DNA of 35,190 bases from the UHGV virus genome UHGV-1507218; one strand, given 5' to 3'. Numbering within the stretch: position 1 is the first letter of the stretch; each line of letters begins with the position of its first letter. Below, piece after piece: positions 260 to 23,080 of this stretch. Source of the DNA: a virus. Below the pieces are notes generated by a model, which had not been told where the DNA came from, searched no databases, and worked only from the letters and a program-made list of their open reading frames with translations. A program made the position numbers and the translations under genes.

Positions 260-499
260 TTATTCAGTCGCGCGGTACCAGGACTGCCAGCGGTAAATGT
301 TGGTGCGCAGCTCCTGCCCGCACTCCGCCGTCTGGGTATCCGCCTGCAAATCCGCATCGCTATCAGAACCTGCATTACTCAGTTTGCATGGCGGGTTCAT
401 CAAATCCGGGGATATTGTTGGCCGCGTCGATAGCTCGCTGGCGCAGCTGCACAGCAGCAGGATCAAACTGGCACTTAGTATGATTCGGGTCGTTGACAT
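260..499 (-). CDS. Rz1-like o-spanin (outer-membrane lipoprotein) overlapping Rz in another frame
   Basis: Signal peptide with LLLCSC lipobox, proline-rich mature part, ORF largely embedded in the Rz frame. Confidence 0.6.
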   Translation of the reverse strand: MSTTRIILSASLILLLCSCASELSTRPTISPDLMNPPCKLSNAGSDSDADLQADTQTAECGQELRTNIYRWQSWYRATE

Positions 500-1267: not shown

Positions 1268-1481
1268 ATTCTCGCGCCTTCCGCCGGTCGTCTTTGATTT
1301 TGAAATACAGATTGGTGAGGTAGGTAAGCAATCCAAATACAATACTGGCCAGAACGCCGATTGCGGCCCATTGGCTGGGACTTACCTTATCGAGAAGTTG
1401 CAGCAGCCAGTAGCTGCCGCTTAGTGTGGATGTGATATACGACGTTCCCGCCGCTACATCCGGCAAATTCTTCATTCGCAT
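1251..1481 (-). CDS. Class II holin / pinholin (S21-like) with a dual-start motif M-R-M-K
   Basis: [52 protein letters not shown] is close to the P21 S21 pinholin. Two TMs and a charged C-terminus. Confidence 0.75.
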
Positions 1482-1537
1482 GCCTTACCCCCACGGGGAT
1501 CACTGTGTGTAGTGGTGTGAGGGTAAGGTGTTAAACA

Positions 1538-1552
1538 GGTCGGAATCCCGAC
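1538..1552 (-). repeat. Late-operon hairpin motif copy 1 (GTCGGGATTCCGACC), 57 nt upstream of the holin
   Basis: Exact 15-mer shared with copies 2 and 4. Confidence 0.7.
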
Positions 1553-1564
1553 TATCTAATTCAA

Positions 1565-1789
1565 TTACTGCTGCATGGTGCTGATATAACTTTCATAATC
1601 AGCCATCGTTATGGCTTTTCTGTTATCCATAAGAACAAGCATCCAAAGCTGGGATAGATCCATGTCGGATAAATTTGTTACCGCTAATTCTGCTACCTCT
1701 TCAGTTTCGTAACACCCCTCCTTCCACTGACCGTTTTCACGTACAACGTAACCATTCTCAGATTTTACAATTTCCATAACTATCCTCAT
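1565..1789 (-). CDS. Hypothetical small acidic protein downstream of the tailspike (ATGA overlap with the tailspike stop)
   Basis: ORF with start/stop overlap coupling; no recognisable family. Confidence 0.4.
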   Translation of the reverse strand: MRIVMEIVKSENGYVVRENGQWKEGCYETEEVAELAVTNLSDMDLSQLWMLVLMDNRKAITMADYESYISTMQQ

Positions 1790-4161: not shown

Positions 4162-4181
4162 CATAAGGGAAGCTCCGGCGG

Positions 4182-5792: not shown

Positions 5793-6133
5793 TTTTTCCG
5801 CTGTTGTATGCGTTCGATAACCTCTTGTGCTGCACGTTCAGCCGCAGAGACCTGTTGCCCCAGTCGGAACGCTTCATCGTCCGGATCTTCTCCTCCGGTT
5901 TTCGGCGTACCGCCGCGAGTATGCATGCCAATAAGTGAATGGACTTTTACCAGCAGGGTTAGCGAGGCGGCTGCATTCTTCTTATGCCAGTACCGATCGC
6001 CGCGTTCCTGTTTGGTGTGCTTTGTGATTTCCTTCCCTGCCCCCGGCCAGTTGTCCGGATCGGCTTCTTCCAGAACTACATCTGTGAGCTTATCGCTAAG
6101 AGCAGTAAGGCGAGTTTTGTAATCTGAATGCAT
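5789..6133 (-). CDS. Putative terminase small subunit (translationally coupled to TerL)
   Basis: Position immediately upstream of TerL with ATGA overlap; small charged protein. No direct motif. Confidence 0.4.
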   Translation of the reverse strand: MHSDYKTRLTALSDKLTDVVLEEADPDNWPGAGKEITKHTKQERGDRYWHKKNAAASLTLLVKVHSLIGMHTRGGTPKTGGEDPDDEAFRLGQQVSAAERAAQEVIERIQQRKK

Positions 6134-6180
6134 AAAAAAGCCCCGTGGTTATCCATAGGGCTATGATGTGCTGGGCTAGA

Positions 6181-6195
6181 GGTCGGAATCCTGAC
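6181..6195 (-). repeat. Late-operon hairpin motif copy 3 (variant GTCAGGATTCCGACC), upstream of TerS
   Basis: One mismatch; followed by a hairpin plus T-run immediately before the ATG. Confidence 0.6.
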
Positions 6196-6205
6196 TATTG
6201 TTGAG

Positions 6206-6418
6206 CTACATTTCACTCAGCATTTCAATTTCTTCAGCCGTAGGCTCAACAAACTTAACTTGCTCAATAGGCACTAACATTGGATGTCCATCTTTAAGAA
6301 CAATGATATGCCTGTTCCACCAGTCGATCCCAAAAACAAAGTGCCGTTGTTTAGAGCCTCTCAACATGGCAACAAGTTTTGGGAACTCGGGCATAATGCC
6401 GTATTCTTTCTTCGCCAT
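6206..6418 (-). CDS. Hypothetical protein in an AT-rich moron
   Basis: ORF in a low-GC island (about 6198-6740) contrasting with the GC-rich flanks. Confidence 0.4.
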   Translation of the reverse strand: MAKKEYGIMPEFPKLVAMLRGSKQRHFVFGIDWWNRHIIVLKDGHPMLVPIEQVKFVEPTAEEIEMLSEM

Positions 6419-6421
6419 AGT

Positions 6422-6736
6422 TTAAGTTCTTGGGTGCTTAATATCGAAAATATCTCGATAGGATTGTGCATAGGATTTTTTAAATTTCGAATAGCATTCC
6501 AAATCTAATGCGCGAATAGTTTTAGTTACTTTATCATGACACATCAAGCAGAAGACTAACCCTCCACCAAACACTATTCCCATAATAACAGGGTTTGCTA
6601 CTCCCCATATTAAACTAGCTAGCAATCCTAAAAATCCAAAACCACCAATACACGCGCCTAAACCACGATTAGTTTTAGCGTTTTGATAACTACGCTCCAA
6701 TGCCTCAAGCGCTCTAATATCCATATGTTCACCCAT
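6422..6736 (-). CDS. Small inner-membrane protein (2 predicted TMs) in an AT-rich moron
   Basis: Two hydrophobic helices (GLGACIGGFGFLGLLASLIWGV; PVIMGIVFGGGLVFCLMC), charged termini, low GC. Confidence 0.45.
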   Translation of the reverse strand: MGEHMDIRALEALERSYQNAKTNRGLGACIGGFGFLGLLASLIWGVANPVIMGIVFGGGLVFCLMCHDKVTKTIRALDLECYSKFKKSYAQSYRDIFDIKHPRT

Positions 6737-6737
6737 T

Positions 6738-9632
6738 TTATTTCATCCCCGGATCAACTTGGTTAATCAACGGTGCAATCCAGAACAGGTTATTACCTGG
6801 CAATAACGTACGCACACTATGCAATACACGATCGCCGGCGTCGCCATTCAGTACACCAGCGGTCACATCGGTAACGGTATCCAGCAGGCCGAAAGTCGGC
6901 CCCAGTGCAGAGCCGATAAAGCCACGGCTAGCGTATCGTGATTGCGTCCCTGTTCCAAGCAACGGCCCAAGCCCAAGCATACCACCGGATGCTTTTTCTG
7001 CCATGTTGTTATATTCCATCAGCGGGCCAAGGATACCAGAACGGTCTATGCCCTCGAGCACCATCTTCTGCGGCGTCAAATCCACCTCCCGGCCATTAGC
7101 CGCCTGCTTAAGCGCATAGGTCAATGAGCCAAGACCAATCTGGAAGGCGGTACCGTAATAAAATTGCGCGGTACCTTCCTGCAGGCCGCCGAGCGTCGCA
7201 CGGTTATAGGATGCCGTTGCAAAAGACTTAAACTGGAATACGGTTTTCCCTAGCGGGGTACTGGCCCACAGCGGCGTATCACCGATCCCCGGCGTGATAA
7301 CGGTATTGTTTACATCCTTCAGCACAGCAGATTGCAGCAGGCCAGCGGCGTACTGGTCATCCCATTTTTCGAAATTGCCGATATGCCAGCCCTGAATAAC
7401 TTCGCCGTGCTTCTGAAATTCTCGCTGTATGCGTTCGGCCATCTTCTCATTGATACCGAGTTTTGCCAGGCGCTTCGCAGGGAACGCGCCGGACAGAATA
7501 CCGTCGGACGTGATCATGCCATTCACCGATTTGTTCATATCGTCAAAGTGGCCCATCATGGTCAGCTTGCCGAACACATCGGTAATACGTTCCATGCCAG
7601 CTTCTGCAGCTGTCGTACGCGAAGAGCTATCGACCAGATCCCCCATCGTACGCGCGCGGGTATGCAGTATGGTTTCAAGCCCCACGGCCATTTTCTTCTG
7701 CTCCGCCCGGCTGGCGAGGTAAGCCGGCGAGCGGGTGATCAGCGCGCCATATCCACGCATGGTATTGCTGAAGCCGTTAACCATCATGCCGCGCGCCAGA
7801 TCCGGGATAGCGGATACCGTCATGCCGCCGAGTTTCGTTACAAAGTTGGCGCTACGCAGGAAAGCACCGGCGCGAACGAAAAATGATGATGGGTCATCTG
7901 GCATACCGTAGGTACCGACGAGGCGATCGCGAAGCGCCAGAATATCGCGCAGGTCGGCTTCACGTGCTTTCGCCAGTTTTTCCTGTTCCGCCGGGCGTAA
8001 ACGCATTAGCGCGTCGTACTCGTCCTGGATGGCGGCGAGCTGCGAATCCAGCGACTTGTTGCCAAAGGTGCGGGTTAATTCGATTTCTGCCGAGGCTTCG
8101 CGGATATGACGCTGCAGGACGTAGTTAGCGTCGCTCTCCAGATAATCTTTCATCAGGCGATCGGGAACGCTCAACGTACGCGATTTAGTGCTGCCCGGCG
8201 CTTTCACCATAAAGACGTTGGCGAACTCCTGTGGAATTTTGGCCCCGACAATACGGTTAATCGTGGTATCGGCAGCGATTTCTGCATCTTCGCGAGACAT
8301 GGTTTTCTCACCGCGTGACCACCAGTCAACCAGCATATTGCGGAATTTATCGCGCTCGCTAACGATTTTCCCTACCTTGTACACGCGAGGGAAATAGCTG
8401 GTCTGTCCCATCGCTTTCAGTTCGGCATCCGGCGGAAGTAAGCCCAGTTCCTGCTGTGCCGTCTTCACACGATTGATGACCGTACGCATTGCCTGTGCCG
8501 CTTCCTGCACTTTCGCATTAACGTGCACGTCGCCGTTGCGCAGTGCCTCGCCAACCTGTTCACGGAAGGCCGTATAACCCATATCGCCGCCTTCAGCTTT
8601 GTACTGGGTGTATGCCTGCTTATTCGCAGTAACGACGGCCGCCTCTTCGCGGCGCCAGCCACGTACGCGCGTCTCAGCCGCAACCGGTGTTTCAATACCG
8701 CGCAGGTTGCCTTCCAGCGTGAAGTTATTCTCTGCCAGTTCCAGAGCTGTCCGGCGCGCTTCTTTTGATGGGGATTCCATCAGGCGGGTGATCGGCGTCA
8801 GATAGCTACCGGCTTTTTTAGCCAGCTTGCCGAGTGGGCCGCCAGACACTGGCGTGAGATCTTCCAGTGTAGCTTCGCGAATACGCATAGCACCGACGCT
8901 GCCACCGTTTGGTAAAGTATCCGCCAGGGCATCGGCAGCGTTGTTAATCGTTGGCGAGGCGTTCATATTATCGAGCGCCTCCGCCACTTCACGGGTGGCC
9001 GCATTTCTTACCGATGGGGTGATCATCGCACCAGCGGTAGCAAATACACCGCTGAGAAGAGCGCCGGCGGTAATGTGTGCGGCGCTCTCCCTTGCTGTTC
9101 TGGTGTACTGCTCATTATTGAGCGCTACCTCACTGAGCGCGGTACCGGCGGCACCAATAGCAACCTGAGAACCAATACGCGCAGCCAGGCTTCCCTGCGC
9201 ACCGGGGATAAACATCGATGCGACTGTGACGGGGTCGATAACCCCGGCGGCTATACTGGCTAAAGTTCCTTCAGCACCTGCTTCAGACAGCACCCGGCGG
9301 TCTTCGTTTTCATCGTCTATCTGGTTTTTAATCCAGGCGGTTTCCTCTGGGGATTTTGAATCCGCAAAGGCGGATCCCCATTGTTCGTAACCCTTTATTT
9401 CGTTTTTATCAGAATAAGGGTTATACCCCTCCGCTGGCTCGAATTGTTTAGCCGGGCGGAACATCCCGGCGAGCAGGTTATTCTGACGAAAAGCGGCATC
9501 CCATACAGACGGTTGTTGCTGCTGTGGCTCCGGGTTAGTTCCTTCAGGCAGAGATACATCAAAACCAGTTGGTGCCTGAAGAGCATTATCCATTACGCTC
9601 GGCGGAACATCAGATTGCGGATAGATAGGCAT
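6738..9632 (-). CDS. Internal virion (core/ejection) protein, large (T7 gp15/gp16-like)
   Basis: 964-aa Ala/Gly-rich protein sitting in the T7 order between the tail tube and terminase genes; start/stop overlap with the upstream core gene. Confidence 0.5.
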   Translation of the reverse strand: MPIYPQSDVPPSVMDNALQAPTGFDVSLPEGTNPEPQQQQPSVWDAAFRQNNLLAGMFRPAKQFEPAEGYNPYSDKNEIKGYEQWGSAFADSKSPEETAWIKNQIDDENEDRRVLSEAGAEGTLASIAAGVIDPVTVASMFIPGAQGSLAARIGSQVAIGAAGTALSEVALNNEQYTRTARESAAHITAGALLSGVFATAGAMITPSVRNAATREVAEALDNMNASPTINNAADALADTLPNGGSVGAMRIREATLEDLTPVSGGPLGKLAKKAGSYLTPITRLMESPSKEARRTALELAENNFTLEGNLRGIETPVAAETRVRGWRREEAAVVTANKQAYTQYKAEGGDMGYTAFREQVGEALRNGDVHVNAKVQEAAQAMRTVINRVKTAQQELGLLPPDAELKAMGQTSYFPRVYKVGKIVSERDKFRNMLVDWWSRGEKTMSREDAEIAADTTINRIVGAKIPQEFANVFMVKAPGSTKSRTLSVPDRLMKDYLESDANYVLQRHIREASAEIELTRTFGNKSLDSQLAAIQDEYDALMRLRPAEQEKLAKAREADLRDILALRDRLVGTYGMPDDPSSFFVRAGAFLRSANFVTKLGGMTVSAIPDLARGMMVNGFSNTMRGYGALITRSPAYLASRAEQKKMAVGLETILHTRARTMGDLVDSSSRTTAAEAGMERITDVFGKLTMMGHFDDMNKSVNGMITSDGILSGAFPAKRLAKLGINEKMAERIQREFQKHGEVIQGWHIGNFEKWDDQYAAGLLQSAVLKDVNNTVITPGIGDTPLWASTPLGKTVFQFKSFATASYNRATLGGLQEGTAQFYYGTAFQIGLGSLTYALKQAANGREVDLTPQKMVLEGIDRSGILGPLMEYNNMAEKASGGMLGLGPLLGTGTQSRYASRGFIGSALGPTFGLLDTVTDVTAGVLNGDAGDRVLHSVRTLLPGNNLFWIAPLINQVDPGMK

Positions 9633-12346
9633 TATTCATTGCTCCATGAGAAGTAGTTTTTAACCCGGTTCATACGCTCATCATGCAAGCGCTGATACTG
9701 TTCATCGAGCGCACGATGTTTTTCCTTAAAGCCCCGAATATCTTTTCCGCGTGATATTTCCTCTTCGCCTTGCTGTTCCCTTTCCTGCTGCATTTTTTGA
9801 TATGGTCCCCATTTTTCAATGTCAGGTTTCCAGCGCATGGGACGACCAAATTTATCGTAATAAGGCTGCGCCCTGGAAATACCATTTTTGTCTTTTGTGC
9901 GAACCATGATCGCGTAATCACGATCATGCGGAGTAAAAATATCAGGGGTTATTTCCAATTCGCCACCAATCCTCGATTCGGGGGTATTTGATGTAATAAC
10001 GGGGGCTGAACCTGATGTAATTCCCAGTTGGGTCGGGCTGGTTTCAATTTTTTCTCCACGTTCCCCATAGGTCAGGCGCTCTTTTTCTTCCTTCCACTGC
10101 GCAGCCTGCCAACCAGACGGCCCGTAGTTATAGAGCGCTTCAGGCGCATATTTCATAAGCTGGGCGCTGCCATTTACATCGCTAAGGCTCCAGGTACGGG
10201 TGATCTGGGCATTAGTCATCTTTTTAGCGATATCAGCATTACCACCCGAGTTGCGATAATTGATGTCATAAAGTGACTGGTAGTCATTACGGAATTTTAC
10301 TGAATTAGGATTCTGGTCATCCGCGGCGGGGCCACCAAAGCTGTACCACGGTTTCATGCTGCTGACTGCGGAATCCATCGCGCTGGCACGCTCTTTTTTG
10401 TATTCCTTCGTGCTCTGCGTAGAAGACAATTGCGATTTCAGGGCGTCAGTCTGGTTATAGGTCACGTTCTGCGCCTGTTTCACTGCTTCGTCTGAAGCCA
10501 TGCCGGAATCGGTAAGCTGTTTAACGGTCAGGTAAAAGCTTTGCATATCCTTTGGCATATCGCCCACTGAGGCAGGATCTGTTTCGTACAGAGCGTTAAA
10601 TAAGGTCGAGCCCTGCTTAACCACGTCGGGGCTACTGGAGCGGGCGATCGCATTCAGTTGGGATGTAACTTGCGATGGGATAATTCCCGTCTGGTTTACC
10701 TGCTGCACTATGGCGTCGTGAGTGGTGGCGTCGTTAATGCGGAAGTTAAGCGCCGATGGCGTATTGTCCGCCGCCTTCTGCATGGATTTGTTGCTCGGGT
10801 CGAGTTTCTCGCCAGAGATCAGCGCATCATTAAAGCGGGTAGCATCACGCTGCGCCTGAATATTGGCGTTGCTCTTCTGCACCAGCGCACTAAGTTTGCC
10901 ATACGCATCGAGTTTCAACGCGTAATCCGGGTCGTTTGCCTGCGGCTTCACTTTCGCCAGTTCGGCCTGCTGTTCTGCCGGGGTGACGTACTGGATAGCC
11001 TGGAAGGTTCTGGCGGTATCGATCGCGATATCCAGTTGCTTGACCGCTGTCTGCCCCTGCTCACCGTACGCAAACAAAATGGTGGAGGCGTTAGGCATAG
11101 CATCCGGCACCTCTCCGTTATACAGCTGCGCCATCGTATTATTGAGAATTGGGTCTATCTGCTGGCGCAGTGCCGTACGTTGCTGGCGGATCTGCGATTC
11201 GGCGATATTGTCTATTTTATTTACCGCTACCGGGTCGAGACCGGTTTTGTTTTTGTTGTAGCGGGACAACCAACCACGCGTTTCGGCTGGCAGCTGCTTA
11301 ACGAAATCCGCCATTGAGATTTCGCCTTTGCGCGGGTCGCCGACTTTAGCGATCAGCTTATCAACGTTACCCATACCCCAGTTATATGCAGCGCCGGCCA
11401 ACGTTTCAGACTGATATTTTTTACTGAGCTGCCCGGCATAATCGCGCGCCAGCTGCGCATGCTGCACAGGATCGTCCGGGTTGTACTCTTCGCCACGTTT
11501 AGCCGCCAGCTCTTTCCCTGTGTCCGGCATCAACTGATATTCACCCTGCGCGCCCGCGGGTGATGTAACAAGGCTACCGTCTGCATTGCGGTGCTTACCG
11601 CCAGATTCCACCAGGCCGACGGCGCGCATATCAAGTTCGCCGGTGCTACTATTGACCAGCGTAAAATCGCCATTAAGCCAGCCGGTGGGATTGGTTACCG
11701 CGTAGTTCTGCGCGCGCTGCTCCAGCGCTTTTTGATTCGCTTCGGAGACCGCACCGTCGATGCGTTCTTGCGACCAGCCGCGAGCCTGTCCATACATCTC
11801 GATCGAGTGTTTACGGGCGCTGCGTATTAGCCCCGCCTGCATCGGGTTATCGTAGGCGCTGGCCTCCTGTTCAACTGAAGAGGTCACCGTCGCGTTAAGC
11901 TGCTGGCGCTGGGCTTCCTCAGTCTGTGCTCGTTCGAAACCACTATAGGTGCTTGTCCGGCGTACCTGCCCCGCTTTCCACTGAGCATCAAAATAGTTTA
12001 ACTGGCTGGGCGGCACGCGCTTGCGAGCTTCCTCGTAATCGCCAGCGTCGGCCTTATCCATATCGGCGACCACACCGGACGATTTAAAGCCCTGACGCGT
12101 GACCGTTGCGCCCGTCTCCGGGTTTTCCCAGCGGTCATTAGATTTAGCTTCCAGATCGGTCAGAATAGCCTGCGTGGCCGCTACGTCGGCTTTATCCTGA
12201 TCACGCTGCACCTGCTCTGCTACCTGCCCCGCAGCAGCGCCAAAACCGGATACTGCATTACCCACAGCGCCCACATTGCTGACCGCGACGCGCGTAGGTT
12301 GTACCTGCGGCGTTACATTGCCAAAATTACCCGTTGGAATTCTCAC
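9632..12346 (-). CDS. Internal virion protein with a lytic transglycosylase (SLT) domain
   Basis: VESGGKHRNADGSLVTSPAGAQGEYQLMPDTG fits the family-1 lytic transglycosylase ES...GA.G..QLM motif. 904 aa. Confidence 0.6.
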   Translation of the reverse strand: MRIPTGNFGNVTPQVQPTRVAVSNVGAVGNAVSGFGAAAGQVAEQVQRDQDKADVAATQAILTDLEAKSNDRWENPETGATVTRQGFKSSGVVADMDKADAGDYEEARKRVPPSQLNYFDAQWKAGQVRRTSTYSGFERAQTEEAQRQQLNATVTSSVEQEASAYDNPMQAGLIRSARKHSIEMYGQARGWSQERIDGAVSEANQKALEQRAQNYAVTNPTGWLNGDFTLVNSSTGELDMRAVGLVESGGKHRNADGSLVTSPAGAQGEYQLMPDTGKELAAKRGEEYNPDDPVQHAQLARDYAGQLSKKYQSETLAGAAYNWGMGNVDKLIAKVGDPRKGEISMADFVKQLPAETRGWLSRYNKNKTGLDPVAVNKIDNIAESQIRQQRTALRQQIDPILNNTMAQLYNGEVPDAMPNASTILFAYGEQGQTAVKQLDIAIDTARTFQAIQYVTPAEQQAELAKVKPQANDPDYALKLDAYGKLSALVQKSNANIQAQRDATRFNDALISGEKLDPSNKSMQKAADNTPSALNFRINDATTHDAIVQQVNQTGIIPSQVTSQLNAIARSSSPDVVKQGSTLFNALYETDPASVGDMPKDMQSFYLTVKQLTDSGMASDEAVKQAQNVTYNQTDALKSQLSSTQSTKEYKKERASAMDSAVSSMKPWYSFGGPAADDQNPNSVKFRNDYQSLYDINYRNSGGNADIAKKMTNAQITRTWSLSDVNGSAQLMKYAPEALYNYGPSGWQAAQWKEEKERLTYGERGEKIETSPTQLGITSGSAPVITSNTPESRIGGELEITPDIFTPHDRDYAIMVRTKDKNGISRAQPYYDKFGRPMRWKPDIEKWGPYQKMQQEREQQGEEEISRGKDIRGFKEKHRALDEQYQRLHDERMNRVKNYFSWSNE

Positions 12347-12351
12347 GTTTA

Positions 12352-12840
12352 TTACTCCGCATATAATCCGTATTTGCCAGTTTTAGCCTTTTGCCAGCCG
12401 CTATACGCCGTTCCGCCGGCGCTTAAAAGCGAACTGCCGGCGCTGATGTTTCCCGCCGTCGCCGCATTTCTTCCACTGATGCGGTCGGCCTGTGCCTGCG
12501 CCTGCAGACGGTTAGAGGAATTCACGCCATTAAGGATCGTCTGGTAAGCGTCCTGCTCTGCGTCTTCGGTAATGCCCGAAGTAATGCGCAGCGCGGTACC
12601 TTCGCCAGTTTCAACGCCCGACGCCGCCAGCGAAGCGTTGGCCGCTGCGGCCTGTTCACGTCCGGCTTTACGGATACGATCAGCTTCCACCCTTGCGGCT
12701 TTCTGACTCGCCTCTGCATCAGCTTCCGCCTGTGCTGCCTGATAGTTCGCCATTTTTTTCTGCTGCTGGCCGCTATACGCTGCGCCGCCAGCGGCTAACA
12801 CCGTGGACGCCACCAGGGCAATTTCTACGCCAGTGCACAT
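12352..12840 (-). CDS. Small internal virion protein (gp13/gp14-like): N-terminal TM plus Ala/Gln-rich coiled coil
   Basis: Hydrophobic N-terminus VEIALVASTVLAAGGAAY, low-complexity A/Q-rich body, position. Confidence 0.4.
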   Translation of the reverse strand: MCTGVEIALVASTVLAAGGAAYSGQQQKKMANYQAAQAEADAEASQKAARVEADRIRKAGREQAAAANASLAASGVETGEGTALRITSGITEDAEQDAYQTILNGVNSSNRLQAQAQADRISGRNAATAGNISAGSSLLSAGGTAYSGWQKAKTGKYGLYAE

Positions 12841-12842
12841 TG

Positions 12843-13295
12843 TTAAACCTCCATCGAATAAAGCAGGCCTGTTTGCTGCAGGCCGAGACGCGAATACAAC
12901 TGGCCGGTGCGTTCAGCGTGCACGCCAGTGGTGATCCCCATGTTGATAACGGCGGCGCCGTGCTCTTTTGACCAGTCAATAAACGCGCGTGCCAGTCGCG
13001 GCCCGGCGCTGCCACCCCGATGTTCTGGCGCGACAAATAAGCCGTATTCGAAGGCCATCAACTGGCGGGAAAAAAACTGCTCGGCAATACCGCCGCCAAG
13101 CCAGCCGATAACCTGCCCGTCTTTTTCGGCGACCAGTACGCAACCAGACGGCGAATAAATCAGGCTTTGTGCCAGTTCTGCGCATTTATCCGCATCAAAC
13201 GGCGAGTTTTGCGAGTAACGGGACTCGAGATACATCCGGGTTCCCAGCTCGATAAGCGCCGGAATATCCCCGGCAGTGGCGTTACGAATCATCAT
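12843..13295 (-). CDS. GNAT family N-acetyltransferase embedded in the virion operon
   Basis: Acetyl-CoA binding motif region VIGWLGGGIAEQ ... HRGGSAGPRLARAFIDW. TAATG overlap with the upstream tail-tube gene. Confidence 0.7.
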   Translation of the reverse strand: MMIRNATAGDIPALIELGTRMYLESRYSQNSPFDADKCAELAQSLIYSPSGCVLVAEKDGQVIGWLGGGIAEQFFSRQLMAFEYGLFVAPEHRGGSAGPRLARAFIDWSKEHGAAVINMGITTGVHAERTGQLYSRLGLQQTGLLYSMEV

Positions 13296-15289
13296 TAGCC
13301 CCCGTTACTGGTAAAGACGATGACAATGGCGAGAAGATGGAACGGCAGCGGCTGGCGCTGCTGAATAGTCAGCGAGTCTTCTCCGCGCTCCCAGCCTAAT
13401 TTTCCCCAGTAGTGATCGCCGGTGAATAAAGGCGCCGGCTGGTTGAGGATTTTTGGCCCGAACGTGCGGAACGGGATCACCTGGCCGTTGCACTCGGCGC
13501 CAGTGGTTTCGAGGAAACGCATAGTGACTTCACTTGTGCGCTTGCGGGTGTTCTGCGTGGTGCCTTCAGACGTAGCGACTTCAGGCGTAAGCGTGGTAAT
13601 AGTCGTTTCAAAATGCAGGCCGATTTCGACTTTGTAGGCTTTGCGCGAAAGCGTGATTTGGCCGGATGATACGACCGCCTGCGGCATGACAGAGCCGTCT
13701 GCAACGATATCGACGGTCTCGCCTTCGAGGTGCGACAGGCCGCTCCATGTCGTTGCGCCAGCATCGCTGGAGCCCGTCACGGCTGCATCGGTGTACAGGG
13801 CGTTGCTGAACATTTCTACATAGCGAACGGTCTGGCCATCGACAGTACGGCGCACAATGGCGTACACCACATCGTCAGTCGCTGAGGGAATAGTCGCTAC
13901 GGACTCAAACGCACCATTGGTGATCTGCCGTGACCACGCGACAACGTTCTGCGCCCGGTCTATAGCCATCGTCACCATTACACCATCATTGCGAACCAGC
14001 CAGGTAAACGCATCAGGTTGCTGCTGATACGCCATATCGATCACGCCGCCTTCTGTGATGTGTTCCGCCAGTACGGTCATATCGTTGGCCGAGTAGGCTA
14101 CATAGCTGTCGGGGTCATAGGCGACAGCGTAGAGCTTACGGCCAGAACGCTGGACGAACATAATTTCGGTACCGACACGCACCGGGCGGATCCCATTGCA
14201 TCCGTACGGACTGGGATTTTTTACCGAAATATTGGTAGGCGTAATCGCCGCATCGTTGCCGGCGGTAATGGTAAACTCGCCGCCGTACGTCAGCGCAATT
14301 AGCGTATTCATCTGCGCGAGGTGCACAATCGGGTTGAGCTGGTCAGAAGACAGCGTAAAGCTGATCGCGTCGTCGTCGTCGGTTCCCAGCTCGAAAGAGA
14401 GGTATACGCCCGACTCACTCCACCAGATAGTTTGCGGATACTGCGGCGAACCGGCCAGAACCAGCCGTTGCTGGTAAAGCGTTACCGCGCCCGGGTATCC
14501 AAATTCATCCGTCCAGACGGAATCCTCGCGAGTCCAGGCGCCCGGCGATGCCGCCTGCGTTGCGCTTAAATCGGTGCGAATGGTACCGACGGCAACCTGC
14601 GCACTGGTCACGCTCTTAATCAGCACCAGACCGCTGTTAATCCTGACGTACGAGCCCACATCTTCAGGCACCCAACCATCACCAGTAAACGGCGGCAGGT
14701 CTTCGCTACCTTCTGGCGGTTCTTCATCGCTCAGGGTCAACGTGATTTCCGAGCCGACGAATTCTTTCACCGATGGCTTGCACCATTTCTGCGGCGTGTC
14801 GCGCACTTCGTCGAAGGGTTCAACGATAAACGGCGTCGGTTCCAGTACCCAATCGGTTTGACCGCGTCGCTGCAGGCGATACGGTTTAACGGCCTGATGC
14901 ACCAGAAACATGGTATCAGCGCCCTGAACGTAATTTACCGATGGCAACATGTCAGAGGTGTACGGGCTGGCGATTTCGTACGGCGTGTTGTCGTCGTTCA
15001 CCAGCTGCTTACCATCCTGGTAAATTCGCAGATAGCCGTCGCCAAACTCCAGAATGTACGCCTGCGTGCGGTTGAAGACGTACGGAATGAGGCGGGATTT
15101 TTTATCACCGTACTTTGTGGCCGCTACGAACTGCGAGCCGGGGCGGCGCATTACCCCGCCCTGCACCACGACCACGCTATTTTCCAGCGTCTTCGCGCCG
15201 TTCGCATAGCGATCGATATCCACGCGCCCCATAAGACGCGGGGAGATTTCACCGGCGGTGAAGTTGGTTTTAATCAGATTGGCGCGCAT
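13295..15289 (-). CDS. Tail tubular protein B (T7 gp12-like nozzle)
   Basis: Large protein directly after the gp11-like gene in the T7 order. Start placed at MRANLIK, 1 nt after the upstream stop. Confidence 0.5.
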   Translation of the reverse strand: MRANLIKTNFTAGEISPRLMGRVDIDRYANGAKTLENSVVVVQGGVMRRPGSQFVAATKYGDKKSRLIPYVFNRTQAYILEFGDGYLRIYQDGKQLVNDDNTPYEIASPYTSDMLPSVNYVQGADTMFLVHQAVKPYRLQRRGQTDWVLEPTPFIVEPFDEVRDTPQKWCKPSVKEFVGSEITLTLSDEEPPEGSEDLPPFTGDGWVPEDVGSYVRINSGLVLIKSVTSAQVAVGTIRTDLSATQAASPGAWTREDSVWTDEFGYPGAVTLYQQRLVLAGSPQYPQTIWWSESGVYLSFELGTDDDDAISFTLSSDQLNPIVHLAQMNTLIALTYGGEFTITAGNDAAITPTNISVKNPSPYGCNGIRPVRVGTEIMFVQRSGRKLYAVAYDPDSYVAYSANDMTVLAEHITEGGVIDMAYQQQPDAFTWLVRNDGVMVTMAIDRAQNVVAWSRQITNGAFESVATIPSATDDVVYAIVRRTVDGQTVRYVEMFSNALYTDAAVTGSSDAGATTWSGLSHLEGETVDIVADGSVMPQAVVSSGQITLSRKAYKVEIGLHFETTITTLTPEVATSEGTTQNTRKRTSEVTMRFLETTGAECNGQVIPFRTFGPKILNQPAPLFTGDHYWGKLGWERGEDSLTIQQRQPLPFHLLAIVIVFTSNGG

Positions 15290-15290
15290 G

Positions 15291-15854
15291 TCAGAACCTC
15301 GATTCGTACGTTGGATAGCCGCCAAGCTCTTCCGGCGGGTCTTCCTGACCATCCACCGCCTTCGCCTGCTTCAGCAGTACCAGCGATTCCTGGGCGAGAC
15401 TGTCGCGCAAACTGGTAGAGCCGGTGACAGCATAGGCCAGCTTTGCCTGCATCATCATTTCTGCCACATCAACAAGCGCGGCATCCCAGGTGGATTCGTC
15501 TTCGTTGCGGAACACATAACGCAGCTTCAGTACCTGCACGTTCGCCAGCAGCCTGTTTCCTTCAACGCGGTACGGAATATCGTCCCAAACTTCACCAACG
15601 GACAGGACGCGAAGAAGATCACCGGGTAGTGCGAACTGAAAGCGGAAACCGAATACCGGCGCTGTACTAACAGGAGAGAGAACCACACGTTTTACAACGC
15701 AGTTCCACGGATGCGCGCGCAGCAGCTTATTGCGTACGGTGGGATAAAGGTTTGAGCACAGACGGGCGTGATCGGTGTTTTCGTCGAAACTGTTAATCGG
15801 GTGAGCACCGAGCGCCAGCAGTGCGTTAGAGCAGATAGAAATACTGTCAGCCAT
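15291..15854 (-). CDS. Tail tubular protein A (T7 gp11-like)
   Basis: 187 aa, follows the capsid gene and its terminator as in T7; GAGGTAAGG RBS. Confidence 0.45.
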   Translation of the reverse strand: MADSISICSNALLALGAHPINSFDENTDHARLCSNLYPTVRNKLLRAHPWNCVVKRVVLSPVSTAPVFGFRFQFALPGDLLRVLSVGEVWDDIPYRVEGNRLLANVQVLKLRYVFRNEDESTWDAALVDVAEMMMQAKLAYAVTGSTSLRDSLAQESLVLLKQAKAVDGQEDPPEELGGYPTYESRF

Positions 15855-15870
15855 AGCCTTACCTCAGATG

Positions 15871-15897
15871 AAAAAAGGCCGGGAGATATCCCCCGGC
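15871..15897 (-). terminator. Rho-independent terminator just downstream of the major capsid gene (T-phi-like position)
   Basis: Minus strand GCCGGGGGATATCTCCCGGCC followed by TTTTTT. Confidence 0.65.
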
Positions 15898-15913
15898 AAA
15901 GGCACCAGCGGCT

Positions 15914-16825
15914 TTATGCTACGAAATCGATGGCGACTACTTTGTTTTCCGCTGCGCGGCCTGCGCCATAGGACGCATCGACGGAAATCTGAATGGTGTT
16001 GTTTTTATCGCGGCGCGGGCCGATATCGACGTTGTACTCTTCGCCGGTACCGAAATGCACAGCAGATTTACACCAGGCTGCGGCGGTTTTGGTGGTGACA
16101 GCGGGATCACCTGCTGAAGCAGAATCCAGTTTTTCATACGCCAGCCACTTAAAGCCCAGCCAGTTACCAGACACTGCGCCTTCCTGCAGCATTTTCACTG
16201 CCATAAAGTCGGCGCTGGTCAGCGTGGTATCGCTGAGGATTTGGGTCAGCATGTCGGCGTTGTAGGTGATGTACAGCTCTTCACCATTCTGCTCGTCACA
16301 CTCGTTACGGCGGAACATCGCTTTTGCAGCGATCAGCTTCGCTTTGGTCATCCCGGTACCGCCAGCAACGATTTTCTGCGATGCGGGGAGAGCAACCGGA
16401 GCGTACGCGCCAGTGTTGGAGGTTTTGCGCAGAACGGTATCGAGCAGTGCACGATAGATAACGTCGTCTTTTTTGCGGTTGGATGCGGCCAGTGTGAGCT
16501 GCAAATATGGCCCCTGCGGGTCAGCCAGCAGTTTGCGCAGGTCGCGCTTTTCCACCGGCACGAATACGCCATAGTCAGCCATCAGCGCATTACGGGTGCC
16601 AGCATCAGGCAGATCCCAGACGGTATCACCGAAACGCGTGGTGATCTGCTGCATCTCGATAGTGCCCATATCGTTGATGGTGAACGACGCACCGGTAATG
16701 TTGCCACGGTCGAAAACAGCAGCTTGCAGGCGGGAATCCTTCTGCTGCGCGGCAATTTCGAAAGAATCATGGAACTGCTGAACATACGCAGCGGTGATCA
16801 TGTTCTTAGCGGTATCAAATGACAT
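15914..16825 (-). CDS. Major capsid protein (T7 gp10-like)
   Basis: About 300 aa, position after scaffold and before the terminator. Start placed at MSFDTAK with GGAG 8 nt upstream. Confidence 0.6.
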   Translation of the reverse strand: MSFDTAKNMITAAYVQQFHDSFEIAAQQKDSRLQAAVFDRGNITGASFTINDMGTIEMQQITTRFGDTVWDLPDAGTRNALMADYGVFVPVEKRDLRKLLADPQGPYLQLTLAASNRKKDDVIYRALLDTVLRKTSNTGAYAPVALPASQKIVAGGTGMTKAKLIAAKAMFRRNECDEQNGEELYITYNADMLTQILSDTTLTSADFMAVKMLQEGAVSGNWLGFKWLAYEKLDSASAGDPAVTTKTAAAWCKSAVHFGTGEEYNVDIGPRRDKNNTIQISVDASYGAGRAAENKVVAIDFVA

Positions 16826-16975
16826 AACAATCACTCCAGAAAGTATCGCCTGCGGGTTGTCGGTATTTCCGGCCCAAATCAGCACAATGCGGTTGGCGCT
16901 GGCGCATTGCGGGAAAATTCAGTTATCCGGCGTCCCCGCCGGGCTGGTTGTGGAGTGATTGTTAGCGAGGTGCGC

Positions 16976-16990
16976 GGTCGGAATCCCGAC
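16976..16990 (-). repeat. Late-operon hairpin motif copy 4, between a terminator and the major capsid gene
   Basis: Exact copy, 3 nt from the terminator T-run. Confidence 0.7.
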
Positions 16991-16992
16991 CA

Positions 16993-17021
16993 AATAAAAA
17001 AGCCAGCGGGTCAGGCTGGCT
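16993..17021 (-). terminator. Rho-independent terminator after the 148-aa gene
   Basis: Minus strand AGCCAGCCTGACCCGCTGGCT followed by TTTTTTATTT. Confidence 0.6.
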
Positions 17022-17050
17022 TAGTGCAGGGAGGAATTTGGGGTGCGGCG

Positions 17051-17497
17051 TTATTCAGATTTCCATTGAAGCGCGTAGCCGCCATCGCAATATGCTTTTC
17101 GCAACTTCTCGATCACTTCAGCGCTTTCCTTGTGGAAACCAGAATAAGCAAGGAAATGTTCAAAGTTTTCCTCTTCGGTATGACCGCCTGAATCATGCAG
17201 ACGCTGTTTCAGGGCATAGCCCATAAGCGGCCACAATTCATTTTCTGCGTTTTCGATAGCGATCTGTTCACCAATTACAGCATTATCGTTTTCTGAAGAA
17301 GCTGAACATGATGGCCTGCCAGTAACAGCAAAACCGTTTTTCGTGGTCAGAACGGCCCAACGGAGTACCTGACCTGTAACAGAAACGTGTTTAACGATCT
17401 CTGTGTTGACGATATTTTCTTTAAAATCGCTCAGCGTAACGCGCGGTGCGGTTAAGCCTTTGGACTGAATTTGTTGCTCGATATCTTTGTCGCTCAC
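17051..17497 (-). CDS. Hypothetical protein between scaffold and capsid genes (GTG start, early-type RBS)
   Basis: ORF preceded by CCGAGGAAAGACCA then GTG; followed by its own terminator; no T7 counterpart. Confidence 0.45.
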   Translation of the reverse strand: MSDKDIEQQIQSKGLTAPRVTLSDFKENIVNTEIVKHVSVTGQVLRWAVLTTKNGFAVTGRPSCSASSENDNAVIGEQIAIENAENELWPLMGYALKQRLHDSGGHTEEENFEHFLAYSGFHKESAEVIEKLRKAYCDGGYALQWKSE

Positions 17498-17530
17498 TGG
17501 TCTTTCCTCGGGTTATGTTGTCGTGACATG

Positions 17531-18379
17531 TCACGCTACGGTTTGATCGCCGTAACGCTTCTGGTAGTACGCTTTCACCTGTGCAGATACGCGTTCATGG
17601 TCGGCATGCTTCGGATTCATGTACGCTTCGGACTTCATCAGGTCGCGGATGGTCTGCTGCTCTGCCGGGTTGCTGTCTGCGCCCGCTGGCGCGTCTTCCT
17701 GCATTTCCGCACCAATTTTCGCCAGCATGCGGATCACCATCGGGTTATTGCCGATTTCATCGATGCGGCCGCGATCGCCTTCATCGGTCAGAGAATTGAA
17801 CGCGCGGAATGCCAGGCCGATATTCTTGTTAAATTCGGCGTCAGTCTTCCAGACTTCGCGCAGCTGCGTGGTAGCGGATTCAGCATCCAGTTCCGCCGCA
17901 CCGTTAACCAGCGATGGGGCGATTTGCGCATACTCGCTGATGATGAAACTCATCTGGTCGTTGGTGATCCCCTTGCCGTGCGCCGATTTCATAAACGACT
18001 GCATGCGCGGGTCTGCTTTGAATTCTTCCCAGTTGAAGCCTTCGGCCTTTACCTCTGGGGCGTAGTCATCAGCAGTTTTTGGCGGCGCGTCGCCGCTGCC
18101 CATGCGTTTTTCAAGTAGAGAGTAATTTTCCGCCAGTTTGCGGGCTGAGCTTTCAATACTGAGTTTTCCGTCCTCGCCCACAACGCGGAATTTTTCAGGT
18201 ATCCAGTCATTCGTGCCCTGTTCGCCCGCGCCGGTGCTGAGTAGTGAATTACCAGCAGGATTACCAGCGCCCTGACTTTCAGCACCACCGCCATTGCCAC
18301 CATCATTGCCCCCTGTGCTGCCTGCTGGCGCTTCGGCGCCCTGCTCGGCGTTCATGAATAAGTGTTTAATCTTCCACAT
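17531..18379 (-). CDS. Scaffolding protein (T7 gp9-like)
   Basis: Acidic, Gly/Ala-rich N-terminus, helical body, between portal and capsid. Confidence 0.55.
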   Translation of the reverse strand: MWKIKHLFMNAEQGAEAPAGSTGGNDGGNGGGAESQGAGNPAGNSLLSTGAGEQGTNDWIPEKFRVVGEDGKLSIESSARKLAENYSLLEKRMGSGDAPPKTADDYAPEVKAEGFNWEEFKADPRMQSFMKSAHGKGITNDQMSFIISEYAQIAPSLVNGAAELDAESATTQLREVWKTDAEFNKNIGLAFRAFNSLTDEGDRGRIDEIGNNPMVIRMLAKIGAEMQEDAPAGADSNPAEQQTIRDLMKSEAYMNPKHADHERVSAQVKAYYQKRYGDQTVA

Positions 18380-18599
18380 CGTCGTTTACTCCATCTGCAC
18401 GGTTGATTTGCATCAGAATGAAATCGAGCACGGCACGTTGTCCGGCCCGGTAACAGGTTTCGCGGTCACCCTCGGTGCCGCCGGGGACGTATGCCGCACG
18501 CCCAAAGCGGCTCGTTAATTCATCCAGCACCTGCGGCCCGCCTGGCATTTCCTCGAAAATGCGTTTGTAATCCGCCGGTGATACTTGTTTTGTAATCAT
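18366..18599 (-). CDS. Hypothetical small protein between portal and scaffold
   Basis: ORF with overlapping start and stop to its neighbours. Confidence 0.35.
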   Translation of the reverse strand: MITKQVSPADYKRIFEEMPGGPQVLDELTSRFGRAAYVPGGTEGDRETCYRAGQRAVLDFILMQINRADGVNDDVED

Positions 18600-20221
18600 T
18601 AGCCCCCCGCTACTCGTTGCCCCAGCGCTGCGCCCACCTGCTGCCCTGCTGTGGTTGCCGCTTCGCTACCCGCCTGCATCATCAGCGCCTGCCCGGCCTG
18701 TTGCTGCTGCGCCTGCTGGCGCTGCTGGCGAAGTTGCTCGACCGCATCAGATGTACGGATAATCTTCGCCGGCACGCCCAGCGCATCCGCTATCACACGG
18801 GTCGCTTCGTCGGTGTCGATGAGGTCGGTCACATCGGGTGATCCCTGCGCCAGATTCGCCACGTTAGCGCCAAGACGTTCAATGGCGGTGACGTTCTCCA
18901 GCTGCTGCGCGCGGGCAAGCGGCGAGATATAACGCACGTTGAAATTAGCGTTTTGCAGGCTTTCCGGCGCTGGCGGAAATACCCCGGCACGGAATGCCAG
19001 ACCGAAACAGCGCTCTACCAGCGGTTGCAGGTATTCAGCCTGGAATCGGCCATAAACCGGGCCAAGCAACTGGCGGATCAGCGCCACACGCACATGTACT
19101 TCGGTTGCAGTCATTGCCGGGCCGTCCTGCGGTTGCAGCTGATCGGCCATCATGATTTTGCGGATAGACGCCTGCAGGCGTTCTTCTGCGGTGAAGGCCA
19201 CATTGAAATCGGCGCCAGTGAGCAACTGTTTCATGCTGTTCACGCTGTTCGCCACGAGGATACGGCGCGGGCCAACTTTGACCGTGCGCGGGTTAAGCAC
19301 GCCGTCGTCTTCCGCAATCCACATCCCGGCGATTGCCAGATCCTGCGCGGCCTTCTCCATGCGCTTTGTTTCGTTCAGCTCTTTGCAGTCCGGCAGCGCG
19401 TCGTATACCGGGCCGATGCCGTACGGCGTGCCTGGTATTTTCATCCAGCGCGGTACGCAGCAGGGGAATTCGTGATAACCAGATTCGCGCACAATGAGCT
19501 TGCCGCTCACTTCCACGTTGTACGATGCAAAGCGCAGGTTTTTAGCCAGGCGCGCATTCACCACGTAGTTTTCACGCGGGAAAATGCAATGCAGGAAGTC
19601 GAATTTGTCATCCGGCTTTTTGGCGGCCGCATCGCGAATTTTTTTGCTGACCTTATCCGCGCCAAATTCTTTAATCGCCTGCTCTGCGGTGAGCTGGTAG
19701 CGGCGATAAATCGTGTCCACGATGCCGTCGCGGCGGGTGGATGTGACGTAGCACTGCGCCAGCGGCCACTGCTGGAACGAGAATCCGCCCTCTTCGCGGT
19801 CTTCGTCGATGTACAACGCGAACCAGCCGGCGCATACCACATCGAGATTAGCCTCGTAGCCTTCAGCGTCGAAGTTAGCGGCGTGGATGTTCTCCCATAC
19901 CAGCGTTGCGCAGGTGGACAACCACGCGGCGGCATCATCCGGCAGTGATTCGCTGTCGAGATTCAGCCACTGCGCGTTTGCCGGGGTCATGCCGGACATG
20001 AGAGCCGACGCCAGCATGCGGGCGCTGTCGGTGGCCGTGCCGTCAAGCAGCCGTGCCACCTTCGATTTTGCGCTCTGTGCGTCCAGCACCTCATCGGATA
20101 ACCCCGCGCCGCGCAGCGGATAGGTGTAGTCGTAGCATTCCCGCCAGACGCTTTCGTGCACCTGTCGGTTGGCTTTCAGCGTATCAGCACGCTTAACCAG
20201 CTTTACGGCGAGTTCATCCAT
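18599..20221 (-). CDS. Portal (head-tail connector) protein, T7 gp8-like
   Basis: 540 aa with a Gln-rich C-terminus like T7 gp8; position upstream of the scaffold. Confidence 0.65.
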   Translation of the reverse strand: MDELAVKLVKRADTLKANRQVHESVWRECYDYTYPLRGAGLSDEVLDAQSAKSKVARLLDGTATDSARMLASALMSGMTPANAQWLNLDSESLPDDAAAWLSTCATLVWENIHAANFDAEGYEANLDVVCAGWFALYIDEDREEGGFSFQQWPLAQCYVTSTRRDGIVDTIYRRYQLTAEQAIKEFGADKVSKKIRDAAAKKPDDKFDFLHCIFPRENYVVNARLAKNLRFASYNVEVSGKLIVRESGYHEFPCCVPRWMKIPGTPYGIGPVYDALPDCKELNETKRMEKAAQDLAIAGMWIAEDDGVLNPRTVKVGPRRILVANSVNSMKQLLTGADFNVAFTAEERLQASIRKIMMADQLQPQDGPAMTATEVHVRVALIRQLLGPVYGRFQAEYLQPLVERCFGLAFRAGVFPPAPESLQNANFNVRYISPLARAQQLENVTAIERLGANVANLAQGSPDVTDLIDTDEATRVIADALGVPAKIIRTSDAVEQLRQQRQQAQQQQAGQALMMQAGSEAATTAGQQVGAALGQRVAGG

Positions 20222-20932: not shown

Positions 20933-21229
20933 TCATTGTGTGTTGCCCTTCTGGTCAGTTTCCCGACCAAAAACAGGGCGGCGGAACGTCCACCACTGCC
21001 GATAAAGCACAGTGGGGAGTTTTTTACGGTCTGAGCTGGTAGCCAGACACCAGAGAGCGATCAGCGCCTCACCGTGACCGTGGCGAGGTTCTGAACCGGA
21101 TTTCCAACCGAGAACGGCAGATTTCGAAACGCCAAGTTCATCGGCGATTTGCTGAGTGGTGAGGTTTTTTCTGGTCAGGTCGGTAATGACGCGGAACCAG
21201 TCTGTTCGGAAGGTGGCAACCAGCGGCAT
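20933..21229 (-). CDS. HTH DNA-binding protein at the head of the late region (candidate late regulator or Nu1-like DNA-recognition subunit)
   Basis: LTTQQIADELGVSKSAVLGWKSG helix-turn-helix. It is preceded by a 155-nt intergenic gap holding a candidate promoter, TTGGCC-17-TGAAAT. Confidence 0.4.
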   Translation of the reverse strand: MPLVATFRTDWFRVITDLTRKNLTTQQIADELGVSKSAVLGWKSGSEPRHGHGEALIALWCLATSSDRKKLPTVLYRQWWTFRRPVFGRETDQKGNTQ

Positions 21230-22689: not shown

Positions 22690-22714
22690 AAAAGAAAACC
22701 GCCATTTCTGGCGG
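22690..22714 (-). terminator. Rho-independent terminator after the 112-aa gene
   Basis: Minus strand CCGCCAGAAATGGCGG followed by TTTTCTTTT. Confidence 0.6.
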
Positions 22715-22741
22715 CCTCCACGGTTCTGGTATGGTTGAACG

Positions 22742-23080
22742 TCACACAGTAAGTTTCGTCTCATGCCACCCATAAGTAACCCAGCACTGCGAATCACCGG
22801 CGCAGGGGCAACTGGTGATCGGTAACGGATCGCCGCACTTTCCACATAACCGTTTACTGATGGATTTAATACGGCTGCTCACTCGCGCGTCATCCTGGCG
22901 GATCAGCAACGCAATATACTCAGCTGCATCGTAGGGATCTCGACCGGGACGACGTGCGGCACAGTTGCGCGCCAGCATTTCCCGTTCCTGAGCATCGAGA
23001 ACCAGCTCAATTTTGCGGTTGCCGGCGGCAGACTGCCGCGCGCGCTGCGCGGCTTTACGTTCTGCGGATGATTTAGCCAT
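22742..23080 (-). CDS. Hypothetical protein with a C-terminal Cys-rich zinc ribbon
   Basis: CGKCGDPLPITSCPCAGDSQC; basic N-terminus. Confidence 0.4.
   Translation of the reverse strand: MAKSSAERKAAQRARQSAAGNRKIELVLDAQEREMLARNCAARRPGRDPYDAAEYIALLIRQDDARVSSRIKSISKRLCGKCGDPLPITSCPCAGDSQCWVTYGWHETKLTV

Follow-up and report, generated by a model that had tools for sequence, protein, structure and literature searches.

The viral genome UHGV-1507218, a 35,190-nucleotide (nt) stretch of DNA analysed here at its full length and referred to below as the window, is a complete temperate prophage of about 35 kb in which, according to PHROG and Pfam scans, lambdoid regulation is combined with a T7/BPP-1-like virion module. 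Its late genes lie on the minus strand, where a 15-nt sequence recurs ahead of them. This element, and the phage protein that may read it, are the subject of the present report.

On the plus strand, the scans identified an integrase (34109-35125), an excisionase, a 725-amino-acid (aa) exonuclease, Gam, and a cI-like repressor. The minus strand begins with cro-like, cII-like, O-like, and DnaB-like genes, a methylase, an HNH gene and a 112-aa regulator-like protein, and continues through NinB, the Ref nuclease, a 98-aa helix-turn-helix (HTH) protein (HTH98; 20933-21229) and a 147-aa protein into the virion module. There follow the portal (18599-20221), a scaffold/protease-like protein (17531-18379), the capsid (15914-16825), tail tubular proteins A and B, the internal virion proteins, a TerS-like protein of 114 aa (5789-6133), TerL (4182-5792), and the tailspike (1786-4164), all on the minus strand, and the order ends with the lysis genes for holin, endolysin, and spanin. 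As the preliminary description of this DNA had stated, no phage RNA polymerase is present: every open reading frame of the window longer than 300 aa was assigned elsewhere, none matched an RNA polymerase family, and no single-subunit enzyme is encoded. Nor did PHROG, Pfam, and NCBIfam scans find a phage sigma factor in the window.

Among sequenced phages, the nearest relatives are the inducible Yersinia podophages YeP4-6, and the APSE paper groups YeP4 among BPP-1/BcepC6B/Xfas53-like phages. Close prophage relatives are also found in E. coli; a virion gene there carries the annotation Bbp19-family (BPP-1) protein, and more than 300 capsid relatives are present in IMG/VR. The hosts of the lineage include Klebsiella, Raoultella, Citrobacter, Serratia, Yersinia, and E. 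coli.

A pattern search located the exact 15-mer GTCGGGATTCCGACC three times on the minus strand (1538-1552, 4245-4259, and 16976-16990) and a one-mismatch copy, GTCAGGATTCCGACC, at 6181-6195 on the same strand. About 0.06 occurrences are expected per window, and none of 100 dinucleotide shuffles matched the observed count. These four copies had been listed in the preliminary description and are real; a fifth, diverged copy, GTCGGGAAACTGACC (20953-20967, minus strand), which is recovered when three mismatches are allowed, was overlooked there, as were the -10 hexamers described below. The statement that copies 2 and 4 have 20 nt in common (GTCGGGATTCCGACCGCGCA) was borne out on reading the flanks, and copy 2 (4245-4259) does lie inside the 3' end of TerL, within its final 26 codons. 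The copies had also been placed 50-150 nt upstream of late genes or operons. From the 3' end of the 15-mer, the measured distances are 57 nt to the holin ATG (1481), 81 nt to the tailspike ATG (4164), 48 nt to the TerS-like ATG (6133), and 151 nt to the capsid ATG (16825). The fifth copy lies within the 3' end of the HTH98 gene, 49 nt upstream of the 147-aa gene, which is the first gene of the portal operon, and all five sites stand 48-151 nt 5' of the opening gene of a functional block. A position-weight scan of the window returned exactly five sites, all on the minus (late-gene) strand and scoring 33-67 bits, against a maximum of 2.6 bits in 20 shuffles.

Exactly 12 nt 3' of the 15-mer lies a -10-like hexamer, in all five sites of the window, where it has the form nAnnnT, and equally in five of five sites in YeP4 and five of five in an E. 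coli prophage. For five non-homologous flanks, the probability that A and T both fall at their key positions by chance is estimated at about 1e-6. For a larger sample, a pattern scan of IMG/VR gave more than 120 stretches, mostly from contigs of about 35 kb, from which 133 unique instances were aligned on the 15-mer (first base = 0). Within the hexamer, A at +28 (hexamer position 2) is conserved in 92%, A at +31 (position 5) in 72%, and T at +32 in 91% of these instances. The upstream edge is marked by A at -5 (86%), T at -2 (78%), and G at -1 (70%), and the downstream edge by G at +15 (76%). The other flanking positions, including the stretch between the 15-mer and the hexamer, are near random. 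The nAnnAT hexamer thereby reads as a sigma-70 -10 element, with -11A and -7T as its best conserved bases.

By that geometry, the 15-mer is located at about -39 to -25. Together with the preceding G it forms a 16-base-pair (bp) palindrome, GGTCGG-N4-CCGACC, at about -40 to -25 and with its center near -32.5, consisting of two 6-bp half-sites whose centers are 10 bp apart. The palindrome is bordered by an A/T-rich edge (consensus ATTTG) at about -44 to -40. Its arms are nearly invariant, and the 4-nt center varies among GATT, GAAA, GAAT, and GATC. At the 17-bp spacing where a -35 hexamer would be expected, the sites carry GGATTC or GGAAAC, and thus have no recognizable -35 hexamer; no extended -10 TG occurs at the sites either. 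Elsewhere on the late strand (1-20000), the sigma-70 consensus has only two weak matches, neither of them at an operon boundary, and their total is below the shuffle expectation. Two other sigma classes were considered and rejected: the sites do not match the sigma-54 (-24/-12) consensus, and most of them read GGATTC and have -10 hexamers that deviate from an extracytoplasmic-function (ECF) sigma-E-like consensus (GGAAC...TCAAA). The sites are therefore very probably late promoters in which a factor-binding site takes the place of the -35 element. The proposal in the preliminary description that the motif is a phage-specific promoter or activator site is strongly supported by the fixed 12-nt spacing, the single orientation, the location at operon starts, and the presence of five syntenic sites in distant relatives. 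A literature search on the motif string returned no match, material on BPP-1 late promoters offered nothing relevant, and the YeP4-6 paper contains no promoter analysis.

The five predicted promoters, all on the minus strand, can be described individually, with transcription expected to start about 7 nt past each -10. P1 (20935-20972; 38.6 bits), for which HTH98 is the last gene upstream, precedes the 147-aa gene, a 74-aa gene, portal, and scaffold. It consists of TTTTG, GGTCGG-GAAA-CTGACC, a 12-nt spacer, and CACAAT (20940-20935), with a predicted start near 20928, and has syntenic sites in YeP4 (L121:17060) and E. coli (L322:23929). Pcapsid (16958-16995) is the top-scoring site at 66.7 bits and combines ATTTG with a perfect palindrome, GGTCGG-GATT-CCGACC, a 12-nt spacer, and AACAAT (16963-16958). 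Its predicted start near 16951 would leave a leader of about 126 nt to the capsid ATG, and the site is kept in all capsid-anchored IMG/VR loci. Pter (6163-6200; 33.1 bits), ahead of the TerS-like gene and TerL, has one arm mismatch (AGTCAG-GATT-CCGACC) followed by CATCAT (6168-6163), a predicted start near 6156, and syntenic sites in YeP4 (L121:2017) and E. coli (L322:9454). Ptsp (4227-4264; 45.7 bits), the site inside TerL, would serve the tailspike and a 74-aa gene through AGTCGG-GATT-CCGACC and GAGCAT (4232-4227), starting near 4220; its YeP4 counterpart (L121:76) is likewise inside TerL and is of the GAAAC variant. Plys (1520-1557; 36.3 bits), with AGTCGG-GATT-CCGACC, TACCCT (1525-1520), and a predicted start near 1513, precedes holin, endolysin, and spanin, and is matched by syntenic sites in YeP4 (L121:33100) and E. 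coli (L322:5230).

Three terminator-like structures on the minus strand accompany these promoters. An intrinsic-terminator-like hairpin (17000-17022) closes the portal-scaffold operon with a T run that extends into the ATTTG edge of Pcapsid. A second hairpin with a T run (20978-20996) abuts P1 inside the 3' tail of the HTH gene, a poorly conserved stretch, and a third, intrinsic-terminator-like hairpin (15878-15897) lies 17 nt past the capsid stop. The capsid gene, which carries the best palindrome, is thereby bracketed by Pcapsid on one side and a terminator-like hairpin on the other. The capsid leader also contains a degenerate copy of the site, GGCCGG-AAATA-CCGACA (16858-16874, minus strand), which ends about 30 nt short of the capsid ATG and is followed after 12 nt by TACTTT. 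At the same leader position, relatives have GCCGGGAAACCGACA followed by ATAATT or TTTTTT. This copy may act as a second, weak promoter or offer the same factor an additional place to bind.

The arrangement is conserved beyond the window, as a search of related genomes, which the preliminary description had called for, demonstrated: the sites are syntenic in YeP4, in the E. coli prophage, and in the IMG/VR loci. In YeP4, the position-weight scan found five sites at the same boundaries, i.e., before a 137-aa gene, before the capsid and TerS genes, inside the 3' end of TerL, and before holin, with a diverged core, GTCRGGAAACCGAAY. The E. coli prophage has the same five sites. Two variants among the relatives deserve mention. 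In one prophage clade among the capsid-anchored IMG/VR loci (L359-L398 and others), the HTH protein is only 50-60% identical to that of the window, and the P1 site is a perfectly symmetric GTCGGGATCCCGAC located about 270 nt past the HTH match and not overlapping it. Citrobacter-type relatives (L276-L286, L362, L384, L386, L391, and L403) contain a single copy of a related palindrome, GTCGGTA(T/C)TCCGACA, in their early region, some 3-5 kb before the HTH gene, with AACCGT at the would-be -10.

Two readings would deny the element a role as a protein-binding promoter site. The preliminary description framed it as a hairpin and named antitermination or RNA processing among its possible functions. 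As a hairpin, the element could be a boxB-like site for antitermination, a signal for RNase processing or RNA stability, or, as single-stranded DNA, an N4-type hairpin promoter. The consensus can indeed form a 6-bp stem with a 4-nt loop (-9.5 kcal/mol for the perfect site), and it would be transcribed in the read-through RNA of upstream operons. However, at the fourth stem pair the unique instances include 37 A.C and 15 G.T combinations against a single compensated A-T; no covariation was seen at other stem pairs, and about 17% of unique instances have an uncompensated break in the stem. The TerS-type site folds with only -2.1 kcal/mol. Because stem-breaking variants are common and uncompensated, these data argue for a double-stranded DNA site for a dimeric protein rather than an RNA hairpin, and the stem-loop framing is not upheld. 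The antiterminator and processing proposals are not supported either, and by the promoter geometry the element lies upstream of its own predicted transcription start. A hairpin would, moreover, give no role to the conserved -10 at a fixed 12 nt. Comparison with individual RNA and hairpin classes gave the same picture: the element has no match in Rfam; the window encodes no N-like protein, N4 virion RNA polymerase, or T7-like RNA polymerase; the loop is 4 nt long, compared with 3 nt in N4-type hairpin promoters, and the stem is not kept; the stem is much shorter than that of an RNase III site; and no T run follows the motif as it would in an intrinsic terminator. A hairpin function is thus very unlikely. 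The two sites that are translated point the same way. The C-terminus of TerL reads VGIPT in the window and VGKPN in YeP4, following each phage's motif variant while the DNA motif is kept, and translation of the P1 site yields FGRETDQ, the C-terminal tail of the HTH protein, which is missing from shorter HTH homologs and is of low confidence in the structure model. Since the TerL residues change with the YeP4 motif variant GAAAC, selection on P1 and Ptsp appears to act on the DNA rather than on the protein.

The other such reading, a generic host repeat of the repetitive extragenic palindromic (REP) or enterobacterial repetitive intergenic consensus (ERIC) kind, or a chance repeat without function, finds some encouragement in the bare 15-mer, which occurs once each in many unrelated genomes; among the matches listed, hits in genome contigs are mostly single and in unrelated taxa. 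However, chance predicts exactly this, with about 1000 matches expected in the 596 Gb searched. When a 30-nt Pcapsid query was used instead, only 7 of 5426 complete E. coli genomes had matches, in 1-3 places each and all in prophage-like contexts, and the host flanks of the E. coli prophage contain no site apart from the reverse reading of the same sites. The sites in prophages lie on one strand only, orientation, spacing, and synteny are all strict, and the shuffles never reached the observed count. A host or chance repeat is contradicted by all of this and can hardly be the explanation.

The factor that reads the palindrome is probably HTH98, which the preliminary description had named as one candidate and which synteny and co-occurrence now back. 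HTH98 has an XRE/Cro-C1 fold, with a five-helix lambda-repressor-like domain. Its only Pfam matches are generic HTH models below threshold (HTH_3, 16.8 compared with 23 bits); it has no match in NCBIfam, belongs to neither Mor/C nor Ogr/Delta nor other named activator families, and a sequence search of the PDB returned nothing significant. Homologs occur in Klebsiella, Raoultella, Citrobacter, Serratia, and Pectobacterium, all named 'hypothetical protein' and without a Pfam or NCBIfam family, and all known hosts are Enterobacterales. When the window proteins were compared with YeP4 by tblastn, the matches beyond virion, packaging, and lysis proteins were limited to HTH98 (51% identity), the 147-aa protein, and a 74-aa protein, and YeP4 has replication and immunity modules otherwise unrelated to those of the window. 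Among these three proteins, HTH98 alone has its gene upstream of P1. In the HTH-anchored IMG/VR loci, P1 is located at or just past the 3' end of the HTH98 homolog on the same strand in 71 of 71 cases. Conversely, all 69 capsid-anchored loci that reach at least about 5 kb upstream of the capsid contain an HTH homolog (50-100% identity, at a capsid identity of at least 90%) followed by the P1 site. Further afield, BcepC6B gp01 is a 34%-identical HTH homolog at the same early/late junction, and no repeated element equivalent to the palindrome could be recognized in the GC-rich intergenic regions of that phage; nor was a clear common element present near distant HTH homologs of 29-46% identity (L313-L316). 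The 112-aa protein (22742-23080, minus strand), which matches phrog_536 ('transcriptional regulator') and combines a basic N-terminus with a cysteine cluster at the C-terminus (CGKCG...CPCAGDSQC), is without a Pfam or NCBIfam family and was not found in YeP4. Because of that absence, it is an unlikely late activator.

Several observations weigh against HTH98 as the activator of these promoters. Two distant relatives, Alcaligenes phage Piluca and Acinetobacter phage TPWB-05, encode a related capsid and a roughly 40%-identical HTH homolog, and at their late-operon starts they carry a different, non-palindromic 11-mer, CACCCAACAAA (Piluca, L320: 7, 19459, 22691, and 24200, plus strand; TPWB-05, L321: 11937, 20849, and 25743, minus strand). 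This 11-mer lies about 57-63 nt 5' of the start codons, with a -10-like hexamer 18 nt downstream, and the HTH gene of these phages is not adjacent to the first late promoter. They appear to have the same promoter architecture with a different specificity element, and do not provide a clean test of the pairing between HTH protein and site. Within the enterobacterial clade, hardly any variation is seen in either the half-sites or the predicted recognition helix, leaving no covariation in specificity to compare, and the co-occurrence of HTH98 and site could reflect shared descent, the site-bearing phages all being related. The PHROGs label of the HTH98 family is 'transcriptional repressor', and a site centered at -32.5 is also a classic repressor position. 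The expression of HTH98 itself presents a difficulty, as a terminator-like hairpin with 11 pairs and a T run (22694-22719, minus strand) lies just past the 112-aa gene and upstream of NinB-Ref-HTH98, and no N- or Q-like antiterminator was detected in the window. Finally, every function assigned here, to the sites and to HTH98 alike, is read from sequence.

These points bear on two further explanations, both of which keep the promoters. The same late promoters may be served by a factor other than HTH98, for instance the 147-aa product acting by positive feedback or a host regulator. Promoter anatomy does not name the factor, the 147-aa and 74-aa proteins are common to YeP4 as well, and a host factor could be shared among the Enterobacterales. 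However, the 147-aa protein cannot initiate the cascade because it is encoded downstream of P1, and it has no DNA-binding domain detectable with PHROG, Pfam, or NCBIfam. A host activator, in turn, would switch on the late genes in the lysogen unless otherwise blocked, and no DNA-binding protein other than HTH98 is kept across the different early modules. Another factor is therefore a possibility of rather low probability. It is less likely still that the palindrome is a repressor operator, for HTH98 or another protein, through which late transcription from otherwise constitutive promoters is delayed or shut off. The overlap of the site with the -35 region, the PHROGs label, and the fact that XRE-fold proteins are mostly repressors would all agree with such an operator. 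Against it, the promoters lack both a -35 apart from the palindrome and an extended -10, and their -10s are weak (e.g., TACCCT, GAGCAT, and CATCAT), so that their intrinsic activity should be low. A repressor made from the end of the early operon would also block the late genes just when they are needed, and the best palindrome stands at the capsid gene, which needs the most transcript.

Activation by HTH98 thus remains the explanation that we favor, with some confidence: five late promoters would be transcribed by the host sigma-70 RNA polymerase and activated by a phage protein that replaces -35 recognition. HTH98 would be made as the last product of the early/replication operon. A dimer would then bind both 6-bp half-sites, one helical turn apart, stand in for -35 recognition on the palindrome, and recruit the sigma-70 RNA polymerase. 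In this way, five operons could be switched on in parallel, namely portal/scaffold, capsid/tail/internal virion proteins, terminase, tailspike, and lysis. The terminators just before P1 and Pcapsid would shield the late operons from early read-through, and the one past the capsid gene may give rise to a short, abundant capsid mRNA. A more far-reaching version is that HTH98 founds an unrecognized family of late master activators in widespread temperate T7/BPP-1-like podophages of Enterobacterales, including distant homologs at the early/late junction of BcepC6B-type phages. In it, an XRE-fold dimer at the -35 position, centered at about -32.5, would displace or re-use sigma-70 region 4 in a manner like sigma appropriation and without an AsiA-like co-factor. 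We regard this version as improbable.

Some features of the prophage lie apart from late transcription. Positions 1-124 of the window resemble the attP/integration-site regions of unrelated lambdoid phages (mEp390, phage 520873, and others) at 88-92% identity. The related E. coli prophage is located beside tRNA-Leu, between yecA and pgsA, and the window itself contains no tRNA gene. A GNAT-type N-acetyltransferase gene (12843-13295, minus strand) lies within the virion module, with tail tubular B on one side and the internal virion proteins on the other, and is kept in YeP4, Piluca, and TPWB-05.

If the proposed scheme holds, it provides a full transcription map for a common, unstudied prophage lineage, with five late promoters, their predicted starts, insulating terminators, and a candidate master activator. 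It would also explain how a T7-like multi-promoter late program can be run through the host polymerase in phages that have a T7-like virion module and no RNA polymerase of their own. The motif can serve as a precise marker for late-operon annotation in this lineage, and synthetic biology would gain a compact, orthogonal on-switch in the 38-bp promoter and the 98-aa protein. Neither the motif nor the HTH98 protein family was found in the literature searched.

The resemblance to T7 that the preliminary description drew is one of layout. As in the T7 class III promoters, identical elements stand before capsid, tail-fiber, and packaging genes, in some cases within the coding sequence of the gene upstream, and, as with phi10 and Tphi, a promoter and a terminator flank the capsid gene. 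This part of the comparison stands. Unlike T7, however, the prophage has no single-subunit RNA polymerase, so that the host polymerase must serve here, and the element, instead of covering -17 to +6, precedes a sigma-70-type -10, with 12 nt between the end of the conserved block and a separate nAnnAT.

Closer parallels are found among promoters at which a regulator supplements the host polymerase. The Mu late promoters Plys, PI, PP, and Pmom have a usable -10, no -35, and a dyad site for the small dimeric HTH activator C. Like them, the promoters described here are dispersed late promoters of lysis, head, and tail operons, with a small phage HTH activator presumably made earlier. In contrast, the Mu site has another sequence and is located further upstream (roughly -30 to -55), and HTH98 has no Pfam or NCBIfam match to Mor/C, its HTH being N-terminal and of the XRE type rather than C-terminal. 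In the T4 middle promoters (MotA box at -30) and the PhoB pho-box, a factor element likewise replaces the -35 at a fixed distance from the -10. However, MotA acts at a non-palindromic box and depends on AsiA for the remodeling of sigma region 4, and no AsiA or MotA homolog was found among the window proteins; PhoB is a response regulator of the host that recognizes direct repeats. Restriction-modification C proteins and lambda cI at PRM are XRE-fold activators that touch sigma region 4. They resemble the proposed system in being small dimers with palindromic operators by or over the -35 and in activating sigma-70 transcription, but they are only 10-19% identical to HTH98, the C-box sequences differ, and C proteins autoregulate one operon, compared with five late operons here.

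P2 Ogr/P4 Delta and P1 Lpa also serve at least four late promoters that lack a -35 and have a partly palindromic element and a small phage activator. Ogr and Delta are zinc-finger proteins that bind TGT-N12-ACA near -55, whereas the P1 phage element is near -22 and its late transcription also needs the host SspA; HTH98 is homologous to none of these proteins. The window agrees with this class in having a shared element at a fixed distance from the -10, no -35 consensus, and sites only in the late orientation at late-operon starts. The system would thus join the activator-dependent phage late promoters of the Mu C, P2 Ogr, P1 Lpa, and T4 MotA kind, and its strategy is a known one rather than a new principle.

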